The notes below the pieces were generated by a model. It saw nothing but the letters and a program-made list of their open reading frames with translations, searched no databases and was not told the origin of the DNA. A stretch of 64,000 bases of DNA from Escherichia coli (GTDB taxonomy: Bacteria; Pseudomonadota; Gammaproteobacteria; Enterobacterales; Enterobacteriaceae): NCBI RefSeq assembly GCF_041248615.1, contig NZ_CP158426.1; one strand, written 5' to 3'. Shown in pieces: positions 47,650-54,874 of the stretch. Both the position numbers and the translations under genes were made by a program. The number at the start of each line of letters is the position of its first letter. Position 1 is the stretch's first letter.

Positions 47650-47693
47650 ACGCACAGAATGTGATGTCAGCACTCTGTGCGTCTGCTTTTATC
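47650..47693 (+). terminator. Rho-independent terminator of eamA; island-side regulator stop codon lies inside its T-tract
   Basis: Stem CGCACAGA/TCTGTGCG with 15-nt loop followed by TCTGCTTTTATC. Confidence 0.6.
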
Positions 47694-48387
47694 GCGGGAA
47701 AAAGTACTTTACCTGGAACTCGAAAATATTGCTGTAAAGTAACGAATAATCCAGCGGAATAGAGTTACTGTCCACAGCCTGGGTCTGAATTTTAAGTATG
47801 GGATCCCGTGGGCTGATCCGTAAAATACTGGCGATTTCTGGGGTAGGAAAAGTAGGGGAGAAAGTTTCAAAGGTGCCAATGATTTTGATCCCGCATTCGT
47901 TCTCAATATACGAAAATTTGGATTTTTGCATATGTGCTACGGTTAAATCAGGAAAACGTGCCACTGACATCCACGTTTCTTCTAATTGTGCTGCATTATC
48001 CTCAATGAATCGCAGTCTCTTTATGTAATAAACCTGCTCACCAGTCACTAAATTCAGCTCAGTCGCAATAGGGGGAGAAGCATCCTGCACTTCAAATTTC
48101 ATAATCTGACTTCCTGCCTCCTTGCCGCTTTTATGCGCAATTTCACTGAAGCTGTTCATGTGATCAATGTGTGCAACAAAATTCTTTTTTTGAATATATG
48201 TTCCTGAACCATGCTTTCTATGAATAATTCCTTCGCCTTCCAGCAAGGATAATGCCTTACGCAGGGTATTACGCGAAACATTATAACGAACAGCGAGTTC
48301 AGCTTCTGACGGCAACAAATCACCAACATGCCATGAATAGCCATTGATCTCGGATTTAAGTAAGCGGGCAATCTTTTGAAAAATCAC
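47689..48387 (-). CDS. GntR/HutC-family transcriptional regulator with UTRA effector domain, 232 aa (bgcR-like), GTG start
   Basis: Track ORF 232 aa; N-terminal GntR HTH (LPSEAELAVRYNVSRNTLRKALSLLEGEGII) ; divergent from the PTS operon. Confidence 0.85.
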   Translation of the reverse strand: MIFQKIARLLKSEINGYSWHVGDLLPSEAELAVRYNVSRNTLRKALSLLEGEGIIHRKHGSGTYIQKKNFVAHIDHMNSFSEIAHKSGKEAGSQIMKFEVQDASPPIATELNLVTGEQVYYIKRLRFIEDNAAQLEETWMSVARFPDLTVAHMQKSKFSYIENECGIKIIGTFETFSPTFPTPEIASILRISPRDPILKIQTQAVDSNSIPLDYSLLYSNIFEFQVKYFFPR

Positions 48388-48502
48388 TTTTGCACCTTTT
48401 AAGAGCCATTGAAAACAAGGAGTTGAGTCCTGATTGGTTTATCGTATGGTCGAGTCGTTTAATTATCACCCTGATGTTGAACAACTTTAGTGCTGTATTA
48501 CT

Positions 48503-48518
48503 GTGATCAATGTACCAG
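48503..48518. promoter_or_regulatory. Candidate CRP site in the PTS operon promoter
   Basis: TGTGA-TCAATG-TACCA (8/10 to TGTGA-N6-TCACA); a TATGAT -10-like hexamer at 48539-48544 would place it near -41.5. Confidence 0.3.
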
Positions 48519-48560
48519 GACGTATAGCTACTGCGGGATATGATATTTACACAATGTAAT

Positions 48561-48574
48561 CTGTTATATACCAG
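48561..48574. promoter_or_regulatory. Candidate HutC-type operator (imperfect palindrome) immediately upstream of EIIB RBS
   Basis: CTGTTATATACCAG resembles GT-N-TA-N-AC style HutC-family operators; overlaps predicted 5' UTR. Confidence 0.25.
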
Positions 48575-48585
48575 TAAGGGAAAAT

Positions 48586-48897
48586 ATGAAAAAGATATTG
48601 TTAGTTTGCGCTGCGGGCATGTCAACCAGTATGCTGGTTAAACGTATGATTGATCATGCTAACGCTATTTCACTTGAAGTTAATATTTCCGCATTGGCGA
48701 TTGCAGAGGCTAAAGGGAAAATTAAAAATAACGAAGTTGACGTTGTTTTACTTGGCCCGCAAGTTCGCTTTCAGAAACCAGAGATTGAAGCTGTTGCACA
48801 GGGGAAAATGCCTGTAGCTGTTATCGAGATGAAAGACTATGGCACCATGAACGGACAGGCAGTTCTTGAATTTGCGATGAAACTACTGCAAGAGTAA
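48586..48897 (+). CDS. PTS lactose/cellobiose-family EIIB component, 103 aa (bgcE-like)
   Basis: Track ORF 103 aa MKKILLVCAAGMSTSMLV... with phosphorylatable Cys in LLVCAAGMSTS motif. Confidence 0.9.
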   Translation: MKKILLVCAAGMSTSMLVKRMIDHANAISLEVNISALAIAEAKGKIKNNEVDVVLLGPQVRFQKPEIEAVAQGKMPVAVIEMKDYGTMNGQAVLEFAMKLLQE

Positions 48898-52401: not shown

Positions 52402-53088
52402 TCTATTTTAGTTAAGGAGTTGTGTATGTCAGGATTTAAAAAAGGTTTTTTATGGGGCGGCGCGGTAGCCGCGCATCAGTTGGAAGGTGGCTGGAATGAA
52501 GGAGGAAAAGGCATCAGTATCGCTGATGTGATGACTGCTGGCGCTCACGGTGTGCCGCGTGAAGTGACAGAAGGCGTTATCGACGGACTTAATTATCCCA
52601 ATCATGAAGCAATTGATTTTTATCATCGCTATAAAACAGATATTCAGTTATTTGCCGAGATGGGATTCAAATGCTTTCGAACTTCCATTGCCTGGACACG
52701 AATCTTTCCGCAAGGTGACGAACAGGAGCCGAATGAAGAGGGTTTAAAATTTTATGATGATCTGTTCGATGAATGCCTGAAGCAGGGAATGGAACCTGTG
52801 GTGACGCTTTCGCATTTTGAGATGCCTTATCATCTGGTGACAAAATATGGTGGCTGGCGAAACCGTAAACTGATCGACTTTTTCATCCGCTTCGCATCAA
52901 CGGTCTTCACGCGCTATAAAGAAAAAGTAAAGTACTGGATGACGTTTAACGAAATCAATAATCAGGTGAATTTCAGCGAAAGCCTGTGTCCATTTACTAA
53001 TTCCGGTATCTTGTATTCGCCAGAGGAAGATATCAATGAGCGCGAACAAATAATGTACCAGGCGGTACATTACGAGTTAGTTGCCAGT

Positions 53089-53129
53089 TGGATTTGCCCC
53101 TATATTTCCAGACACCTGTTATCACTTAA
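53089..53129. repeat. IS2 terminal inverted repeat (insD-proximal end)
   Basis: TGGATTTGCCCCTATATTTCCAGACACCTGTTATCACTTAA; extent approximate. Confidence 0.7.
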
Positions 53130-54005
53130 CCCATTACTGGCCTGCTGCCGCAGATATTCCCGTGGCGAGCGATAACCCAGTGCACTATGCGGATGCCATT
53201 CGTTATAATGCTCGAACGCCTCTGCAAGGTTCTTTGCTGCCGTTAACCCGTCTGGTTTAGGCATGATACTGATGTAGTCACGCTTTATCGTTTTCACGAA
53301 GCTCTCTGCTATGCCGTTACTCTCCGGACTCCGCACCGCCGTGTTCTTCGGTTCAAGCCCCAATATCCGGGCAAACTGCCGTGTTTCATTAGCCCGGTAG
53401 CATGAACCATTATCCGTCAGCCACTCTACTGGAGACGCCGGAAGCTCGTTGCCGAAGCGGCGTTCCACCGCTCCCAGCATGACGTCCTGTACTGTTTCAC
53501 TGTCGAAGCCGCCCGTAGTGACTGCCCAGTGCAGTGCCTCACGGTCACAGCAGTCCAGCGCGAACGTGACTCGCAGTTTTTCTCCGTTATCACAGCGGAA
53601 CTCGAACCCGTCAGAGCACCATCGTTGATTGCTTTCTTTCACGGCCACTTTGCCAGTATGTGCCCGTTTCGATGGCGGTACAGCGGTTTTTCGCTCAAGC
53701 AACAGCGCATTCTGGCGCATGATCCGGTAAACACGTTTGGCATTGATCGCAGGCGTACCATCAAGTTCGGCCTGTCTGCGAAGCAGCGCCCATACCCGAC
53801 GATAACCATACGTGGGCAGCTCTCCGATAACATGGTGTATACGGAGAAGCACATCCGTATCATCTGAGTGACGGCTGCGGCGACCATCTTTCCAGTCATC
53901 GGTTCGTCTGAGAATTACGTGCAACTGCGCACGCGACACCCGGAGACAACGGCTGACTAAGCTTACTCCCCATCCCCGGGCAATAAGGGCGCGTGCGCTA
54001 TCCAC
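53100..54005 (-). CDS. insD: IS2 transposase OrfB (InsD), 301 aa
   Basis: Track ORF 301 aa with DDE integrase core ([12 protein letters not shown]). Confidence 0.92.
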
Positions 54006-54328
54006 TTTTTTGCACGCCCGTATTCAACGGCTTCTTTAAGGAGTTCATTTTCCATCGTTTTTTTGCCGAGCAGGCGCTGGAGTTCTTTAATCTGCTTCAT
54101 GGCAGCAGCAAGTTCAGAGGCAGGAACGACCTGCTCTCCTGCGGCCACAGCAGTAAGACTTCCCTCCTGGTATTGCTTGCGCCAGAGAAATAACTGGCTG
54201 GCTGCCACACCGTGTTGCCGGGCAACAAGGGAGACCTTCATTCCCGGTTCAAAACTCTGCTGAACAATAGCGATCTTTTCCTGTGTAGTACGCCGTCTGC
54301 GTTTCTCCGGTCCTAAGACATCAATCAT
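53963..54328 (-). CDS. insC: IS2 OrfA (InsC), 121 aa
   Basis: Track ORF 136 aa; start placed at [24 protein letters not shown] (complement ATG 54326-54328); overlaps insD as expected for frameshift fusion. Confidence 0.9.
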
Positions 54329-54378
54329 CTGCTCTCCAATGACTAGTCTAAAAACTAGTATTAAGACTATCACTTATT

Positions 54379-54419
54379 TAAGTGATATTGGTTGTCTGGA
54401 GATTCATGGGGCCAGTCTA
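54379..54419. repeat. IS2 terminal inverted repeat (insC-proximal end)
   Basis: ...GGTTGTCTGGAGATTCATGGGGCCAGTCTA; extent approximate. Confidence 0.7.
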
Positions 54420-54874
54420 CTGGTCAGCAACCCTTATATCGATACATCCGAATGGGGATGGCAAATTGATCCGGCAGGGCTACGTTATTCACTCAACTGG
54501 TTCTGGGATCATTTCCAGTTGCCGCTGTTTATTGTCGAAAATGGATTTGGTGCGGTTGACCAGAGACAAGCTGACGGCACGGTGAACGATCACTATCGCA
54601 TTGATTACTTTGCTTCCCATATTCGGGAAATGAAAAAAGCCGTAGTCGAAGATGGTGTTGACTTAATTGGCTACACCCCATGGGGCTGTATTGACCTGGT
54701 TTCTGCCGGAACAGGGGAAATGAAAAAGCGCTACGGAATGATTTACGTCGATAAAGACAACGAAGGGAAGGGAACCCTGGAACGGATACGTAAAGCGTCG
54801 TTTTACTGGTATAGGGATCTCATCGCCAACAATGGCGAAAATATTTGAGACTTCAGGAAGATATTACGGAGATA

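Follow-up and report, generated by a model that had tools for sequence, protein, structure and literature searches.

The 64,000-nt stretch of Escherichia coli DNA analysed here (the window, whose numbering is used for all coordinates) carries an inserted stretch between the core genes eamA and marB that is very probably the bgc locus of E. coli, that is, a regulator gene, bgcR, transcribed divergently from a five-gene operon for beta-glucoside uptake and cleavage. In this strain the last gene of the operon, bgcA, is split by an insertion sequence (IS) of the IS2 type and has lost 348 bp of its coding sequence. Over 8.5 kb the window matches the chromosome of E. coli NRZ14408 (NZ_LT599825.1) at 100% identity, and the RefSeq annotation of that record has the same six genes with the same coordinates and strands as the open reading frames (ORFs) in the window. 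The bgc system is already known and the region holds no new type of system; what the analysis adds, helpful to annotation though unsurprising, is the precise lesion, a prevalence of about 47%, repeated IS hits, the sites occupied in Citrobacter and Salmonella, and conserved blocks in the regulatory region.

Gene content and identity of the locus

The features of the locus, followed by those of its ends and flanks, are given below with the matches that define them. EIIA, EIIB and EIIC are the corresponding components of a phosphotransferase system (PTS).

47689-48387, minus strand: bgcR, GntR/HutC-type regulator, 232 amino acids, intact (GntR helix-turn-helix plus UTRA; RefSeq; identical to WP_000577190.1)
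48388-48585, no strand: divergent regulatory region, 198 bp, 37% G+C (alignment A1 of 15 species)
48586-48897, plus strand: PTS EIIB (bgcE), lactose/cellobiose family, 103 amino acids, intact (TIGR00853, 1.2e-24; RefSeq annotation)
49011-50333, plus strand: PTS EIIC, lactose/cellobiose family, 440 amino acids, intact (TIGR00410; PDB 3QNQ)
50361-50672, plus strand: PTS EIIA, lactose/cellobiose family, 103 amino acids, intact (NF007768, 1.6e-30; TIGR00823, 1.3e-28; RefSeq start)
50728-52401, plus strand: outer-membrane sugar porin (bgcH), 557 amino acids, intact (Pfam LamB, 1.2e-81; Sugarporin_N, 2e-6)
52426-53088, plus strand: bgcA 5' fragment, codons 1-221, GH1 6-phospho-beta-glucosidase (aligned to the intact BgcA of locus L002)
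53089-54419, minus strand: IS2 (IS3 family), 1,331 bp, orfA and orfB (NF006918, 700.8 bits; NF006928, 272.9 bits; both above cut-off)
54420-54848, plus strand: bgcA 3' fragment, codons 338-479 (aligned to the intact BgcA of L002)
47635-54902, no strand: inserted stretch relative to the empty eamA-marB site (blastn against the empty-site locus L003 and the intact locus L002)
47650-47682, no strand: left-end hairpin of the island, followed by CUGCUUUUAU on the plus strand (inverted repeat I2)
54875-54898, no strand: right-end hairpin of the island, perfect 10-bp stem
46745-47644, plus strand: eamA, left flank, core gene (NF008523, 630 bits; RefSeq annotation)
54905-55123, minus strand: marB, right flank, core gene (NF007508, 138 bits, cut-off 87; RefSeq annotation)

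The Pfam domains of BgcR (UTRA, 9e-30; GntR, 1e-18) place it in the HutC subfamily, and its nearest solved structures are YvoA/NagR and DasR. IIB, IIC and IIA are encoded as separate proteins, as in a lactose-family (Lac-family) PTS, and IIC matches TIGR00410 at 337.7 bits (cut-off 236) and ChbC (PDB 3QNQ) at 3.8e-57; the matches of IIB (TIGR00853, E 1e-24) and IIA (TIGR00823, E 1e-28) fall below the strict cut-offs. The porin consists of a LamB barrel (residues 147-557, covering positions 1-378 of the 378 in PF02264) with an N-terminal extension ahead of it, and thereby resembles the ScrY sucrose porin and LamB maltoporin, in which a LamB barrel is joined to a periplasmic N-terminal extension (Sugarporin_N). 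Because a plain sequence search against solved structures returned nothing for the porin at E 1e-3, and because its NCBIfam LamB match is under cut-off, we assign it to a separate LamB subfamily; its specificity is deduced from gene context. A first-pass annotation of the window had listed these six genes as a GntR/HutC regulator, a cellobiose-type PTS, a LamB/ScrY-type porin and a GH1 glucosidase that together make a complete import-and-cleavage unit. The ORFs and the RefSeq annotation of NZ_LT599825.1 agree with its coordinates, strands and gene order, the Pfam, NCBIfam and structure matches agree with its families, and the family assignments support its view of the genes as a complete unit.

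PMC3585215 describes bgc as a five-gene operon encoding PTS IIB, IIC and IIA components and a phospho-beta-glucosidase under a GntR-type regulator, BgcR, and reports that it serves the use of cellobiose, arbutin and salicin. PMC4488073 counts "at least four" beta-glucoside operons in E. coli, namely chb, asc, bgl and bgc. In the window, the genes for IIB, IIC, IIA, porin and phospho-beta-glucosidase follow one another in that order (the last as a pseudogene), a GntR-type regulator gene lies divergently beside them (47689-48387, minus strand), and the locus is absent from K-12 and variable among natural isolates, being found in 2,493-2,563 of 5,426 genomes. This gene content and order and the divergent GntR regulator fit the locus of Neelakanta, Sankar & Schnetz (2009), as do the lack of the genes in K-12 and their occurrence in E. 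albertii, and it is on this fit that we base the identification. Their report (Appl Environ Microbiol 75:2284) is said to concern bgcR and bgcE-F-I-H-A in septicemic and uropathogenic E. coli. Its abstract reportedly states that bgc transcription is CRP-dependent, that bgc occurs in E. albertii, with homologues in Citrobacter, Klebsiella and Enterobacter relatives, and that it is prevalent in B2 and rare in commensals, a marker of B2 and of extraintestinal pathogenic E. coli (ExPEC).

The other beta-glucoside systems of E. coli share parts of this architecture. The K-12 chb operon (chbBCARFG) likewise has lactose/cellobiose/chitobiose PTS IIB, IIC and IIA components and is a cryptic cellobiose system, but its AraC-type ChbR, GH4 ChbF and deacetylase ChbG, and the lack of a porin, set it apart from the window locus with its HutC-type regulator, GH1 hydrolase and LamB-type porin. 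The bgl operon (bglGFBH) resembles the window locus in its GH1 phospho-beta-glucosidase and LamB-family porin BglH, but it relies on a fused glucose-family EIIBCA (BglF) and an RNA-binding antiterminator (BglG), unlike the separate Lac-family EIIB, EIIC and EIIA and the DNA-binding regulator found here. A LacI-type repressor is characteristic of asc, and to our knowledge none of the chb, asc and bgl loci of K-12 has the architecture of the window locus. PMC2646131 describes bgl as an AT-rich operon that is variably present and is silent in wild-type strains. Outside these operons, gmuBACDREFG of Bacillus subtilis and bgu of Streptococcus pneumoniae are like bgc in combining a HutC/GntR regulator with Lac-family IIB, IIA and IIC components and a GH1 enzyme for beta-linked disaccharides (PMC3585215), and the closest solved relative of BgcA is the streptococcal enzyme 3PN8. 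BguR is described as a repressor (PMC3585215), whereas BgcR is reported to be an activator. Unlike bgc, the two Gram-positive systems have no porin.

Several points weigh against the identification. Identity with the published bgc locus has been established by description and exclusion only, the comparison with bgc having been made via secondary descriptions, and a cluster look-up of public protein records returned generic names only and none named Bgc. The names F and I are uncertain, as BgcF is given as IIA and BgcI as IIC in PMC3585215, opposite to the gene order E-F-I. In addition, the substrate range, activation by BgcR and dependence on CRP are claims of the literature, and the right half (TACCA) of the CRP-like site described below is weak. 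We found no literature joining marB, eamA and cellobiose. The first-pass annotation had likewise proposed bgc, which the secondary descriptions and the exclusion of chb, asc and bgl support indirectly. The region is properly annotated as bgcR-bgcEFIH plus a bgcA pseudogene (IS2, 348-bp deletion) rather than as a set of generic PTS genes.

Junctions, distribution and age of the locus

In K-12 MG1655, marB and eamA are convergent with stop codons 30 bp apart and the site between them is empty, much as the first-pass annotation had stated; the site is also empty in strain PSS-10. When the empty site is aligned to the window, the breakpoints fall at 47634/47635 and 54902/54903, so that 7,268 bp (5,937 bp of bgc DNA and the 1,331 bp of IS2) replace 38 bp of the empty allele. 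An insertion had been proposed before at 47689-54874; the insertion stands, but comparison with the empty site moves its limits to 47635-54902. The 38 bp that were replaced comprise the final three sense codons of eamA and the sole intergenic hairpin of the empty allele. EamA accordingly ends in ...KVRG* in the occupied allele and in ...KVGS* in empty-site strains, a difference that places the recombination breakpoint inside the eamA coding sequence (47635-47644).

The six genes had also been placed between the terminators of eamA and marB. This did not hold: the K-12 hairpin is missing, and each end of the island has its own hairpin (47650-47682 and 54875-54898). The left-end hairpin (-20.3 kcal/mol on the plus strand and -23.3 on the minus strand; z -2.4 and -4.1) is not related to the hairpin of K-12 and is likely the terminator for eamA and, on the other strand, for bgcR. 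The right-end hairpin (-18.8 and -20.4 kcal/mol; z about -4) is kept in E. albertii and in a B2 (Nissle-derived) strain. A promoter and terminator consensus scan yielded sites no commoner than in shuffled sequence, missed both end hairpins and was not used, and an Rfam scan of the whole window at gathering threshold returned no RNA element within the island.

The bgc DNA of the island has a G+C content of 42.6%, compared with 48-49% in the flanks, falling to 37% in the regulatory region and 27% in the spacer between the IIB and IIC genes. A repeat search and scans of the window found no direct repeats flanking the island, integrase, att-like features or tRNA. A classical integrative island was rejected for want of flanking direct repeats, an integrase and att-like features.

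Some part of the island (IS excluded) occurs in 2,563, and at least 80% of it in 2,493, of the 5,426 complete E. coli genomes searched, nearly always as a single chromosomal copy. Five of the 2,572 places that match the island are in plasmid records and may represent short matches or misassigned contigs. The carriers listed come from human, pig, poultry, dog, milk and water, and include a Nissle-derived strain, CE10 and several strains labelled as Shiga toxin-producing E. coli. The locus is thus accessory, as the first-pass annotation held: K-12 and PSS-10 are empty, the genes are carried by about 47% of genomes and not by most E. coli, and the island differs in G+C content from its flanks. 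bgc is a variable (shell) locus of E. coli without mobility genes of its own. Compared with the published bgc, the window locus differs in that bgcA is split by IS2 with codons 222-337 missing, and in that the locus occurs in about 47% of complete genomes, a wider spread than the reported prevalence in B2 and rarity in commensals. A six-gene "PTS system, cellobiose specific" set of CFT073, c1955-c1960, is absent from K-12, was scored present in UTI89, E24377A, B7A, HS and SMS-3-5 among others, and is absent from O157:H7 (PMC2831201). If c1955-c1960 is the locus of the window, the distribution of bgc extends to pathotypes well beyond the ExPEC of the published description.

Beyond E. coli, a scan of one genome per species recovered the same R/E-F-I-H-A cassette in four species: E. 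albertii, Citrobacter sp. On2M, Salmonella enterica subsp. diarizonae and Erwinia psidii. In E. albertii the locus adjoins marB with the same right junction. The Citrobacter cassette (L007 4944-11137) lies between tktB and nudK/aegA and the S. diarizonae cassette (L008 2473-8674) between a nitroreductase gene and an autotransporter esterase gene; no mobility genes were found in the flanks examined of either. A rearranged cassette, in which the GH1 gene lies upstream of the regulator gene on the same strand and IIA is often missing, occurs in Kluyvera, Raoultella, Klebsiella, Enterobacter, Cedecea, Buttiauxella and Ewingella (L009-L021, L029, L030, L036). The same cassette at the unrelated Citrobacter and Salmonella sites indicates that it has moved as a unit between enterobacterial chromosomes.

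Whether bgc was gained as an ExPEC island, or is an old Escherichia resident, older than the divergence of E. coli from E. albertii, that K-12-like lineages have lost or replaced, is a question on which we regard the evidence as evenly balanced. Three E. coli alleles that diverge by 2-3% share identical junctions, which argues that bgc is old at the eamA-marB site. Old residence is further favoured by E. albertii, where the right junction and its hairpin recur next to marB, and where the nucleotide identity of the locus to E. coli (80-84%, versus 88-90% for marA/marR) speaks against recent transfer. A prevalence of 46-47% among complete E. coli genomes also fits an old resident, as does, if c1955-c1960 is the bgc locus, its presence in pathotypes as unlike as UTI89, E24377A, HS and SMS-3-5 (PMC2831201). 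However, the empty allele has no trace of the island ends and possesses a terminator of its own, the left junction of E. albertii lies off the contig so that only the right junction is seen, and the low G+C content together with the unrelated Citrobacter and Salmonella sites implies that the cassette moved horizontally at some time. The picture of bgc is in any case updated to that of a shell locus which about half of sequenced E. coli carry, which IS elements have struck repeatedly and which lies beside marB in E. albertii.

The bgcA lesion and the proposed function

The intact BgcA of strain MS 57-2 matches NF007154 at 1036 bits (cut-off 624), aligns end to end with solved 6-phospho-beta-glucosidases (3PN8/4F66, E 3e-242; E. 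coli BglA 2XHY, 3e-203) and contains the two catalytic glutamates, E176 (TFNEIN, acid/base) and E377 (IVENG, nucleophile). It is thus a full-length GH1 protein with both glutamates. The window copy is not, having the acid/base glutamate of TFNEIN on the 5' fragment and the nucleophile glutamate of IVENG on the 3' fragment, and is a pseudogene. The window follows the intact allele up to bgcA nucleotide 663 and resumes at 1012, codons 222-337 (348 bp, in frame) being gone, and the frame of the 5' fragment continues into IS2 as far as a stop at 53175. Judged from its sequence, the BgcA enzyme of the window strain is dead, and since 348 bp of bgcA are gone, excision of IS2 cannot restore it.

The ends of the IS2 element read TGGATTTGCCCC... 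and TAGACTGGCCCC..., its terminal inverted repeats are imperfect, and RefSeq labels its gene "IS3 family transposase, programmed frameshift". The bases flanking the element are CCAGT and CTGGT, and the 5-bp target duplication is absent. Together with the loss of 348 bp of target, this absence argues for a secondary deletion event rather than a different element, and points to either an IS-adjacent deletion or recombination between two IS2 copies. The copy is about 99% identical to copies named only "IS3 family transposase" and about 95% identical to copies named "IS3-like element IS2 family transposase", and an 8.5-kb query containing IS2 matches NZ_LT599825.1 at 13 places.

Among the 5,426 complete E. 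coli genomes, the same arrangement of IS2 and deletion occurs in NRZ14408 only; the lesion was considered as a lineage marker and rejected because it is confined to one genome. Other copies of the locus are damaged in other ways. In W150 (L005 1164-3938) an independent IS2 lies after bgcA nucleotide 338 in the same orientation, with a 5-bp duplication (TGATC) and no deletion; IS1 is inserted in EcPF20 and 1368KP, and LY180 has a truncated locus without bgcA. Taken together, these copies show that decay of bgc is recurrent in E. coli.

The first-pass annotation had called the locus cryptic because the glucosidase is broken, and was silent on the full 1,331-bp IS2 (53089-54419) and on the 348-bp loss. 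The glucosidase is indeed broken, by IS2 and the deletion, but crypticity is a separate matter: PMC4488073 says of the beta-glucoside operons, intact copies included, that they are cryptic and require stringent selection and regulator or promoter mutations for use. The locus of the window strain is a pseudo-operon in addition to being cryptic.

In a strain with an intact locus, the family assignments suggest that the sugar would cross the outer membrane through the LamB-type porin and that EIIC would translocate the beta-glucoside while EIIB phosphorylates it, the phosphate passing from phosphoenolpyruvate through EI, HPr and EIIA to EIIB. The GH1 enzyme would then cleave the 6-phospho-beta-glucoside to glucose-6-phosphate and glucose or an aglycone. 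The substrates, taken from the literature, would be beta-glucosides (cellobiose, arbutin, salicin), and the HutC-type BgcR would, also according to the literature, activate bgc transcription. In NRZ14408 the hydrolysis step has been destroyed, with the regulator, all three PTS components and the porin intact. As a consequence of the IS2 insertion and the 348-bp loss, the locus no longer works as a self-contained pathway in this strain.

The remaining genes are well preserved. The intact-locus strain MS 57-2 has the same BgcR, IIA and porin proteins; IIB is one residue off and IIC two. Relative to the B2 (Nissle-derived) allele most changes are synonymous (in IIC, for example, 32 nucleotide and 6 amino-acid changes), which indicates that the bgc locus is under purifying selection in E. 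coli. That bgc is still useful to the window strain as an uptake module, with BglA, AscB, BglB or ChbF cleaving the product so that the loss of bgcA is tolerated, seems to us unlikely. The idea draws on the full-length ORFs for the regulator, IIB, IIC, IIA and porin, with 0-2 amino-acid differences from the intact-locus strain, on the closeness of intact BgcA to E. coli BglA (2XHY, E 3e-203) and on the fact that E. coli encodes several phospho-beta-glucosidases. However, a lesion found in one genome only is probably recent, which makes the intact neighbouring genes uninformative on selection, and PMC4488073 reports that the operon stays silent unless its promoter or a regulator is mutated.

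Another beta-linked disaccharide (mannobiose, glucosyl-mannose from glucomannan, or a chitobiose-like sugar) could in principle be the natural substrate, as for the HutC-regulated gmu of B. subtilis. The pneumococcal regulator BguR is by BLAST highly similar to both GmuR and BgcR (PMC3585215), and IIA and IIC also match chitobiose models, below cut-off; specificity is not fixed by family membership. We consider such a substrate improbable, given that use of cellobiose, arbutin and salicin through bgc is reported in PMC3585215, that the hydrolase is a GH1 6-phospho-beta-glucosidase above the NF007154 cut-off and not a GH4 enzyme of the ChbF type, and that the ORFs and family scan of the cassette include no gene for a deacetylase or a mannose-6-phosphate isomerase. 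We give very little credence to the proposal that the loss of bgcA was adaptive rewiring, leaving a porin/PTS uptake or sensing module that feeds other phospho-beta-glucosidases, or that IS2, about 500 bp from the convergent marB, alters read-through or antisense transcription into marRAB, although such an effect on marRAB, if true, would touch the antibiotic-tolerance regulon of the window strain.

The divergent regulatory region and neighbouring observations

The spacer between bgcR and bgcE is 188-200 bp long in all 15 aligned species and contains conserved blocks. TGTGA at 48502-48506 is invariant across the alignment and, with TACCA at 48513-48517 six bases downstream, may form a CRP-like site with its centre near 48509.5. 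Judged by the position of a TATGAT hexamer (48539-48544), transcription would start about 41 bp downstream of this centre, a geometry we take to be that of a class II CRP promoter. Just upstream of the CRP-like site, a second conserved block at 48457-48486 contains an inverted repeat of the GTTCA...TGAAC type and is a candidate operator for BgcR; the conserved stretch adjoining bgcR is the Shine-Dalgarno region of that gene. All three E. coli alleles have the same bases throughout the CRP-like site and the GTTCA...TGAAC block. The 15-species footprint offers concrete candidate sites for CRP and BgcR to work on bgc regulation.

The 113-bp spacer between the IIB and IIC genes (48898-49010) is AT-rich, at 27% G+C. 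A conserved RNA switch in this spacer was entertained and dropped, its fold being not significantly more stable than those of shuffles (z -2.2) and its length ranging from about 30 to 240 bp between species. Elsewhere in the window, 44934-45147 on the plus strand matches the Rfam family STnc560, an Hfq-binding small RNA, over its full length (281.9 bits), and RefSeq places the small-protein genes mgtT and mgtS at about 45037-45236, on the strand opposite the STnc560 match.

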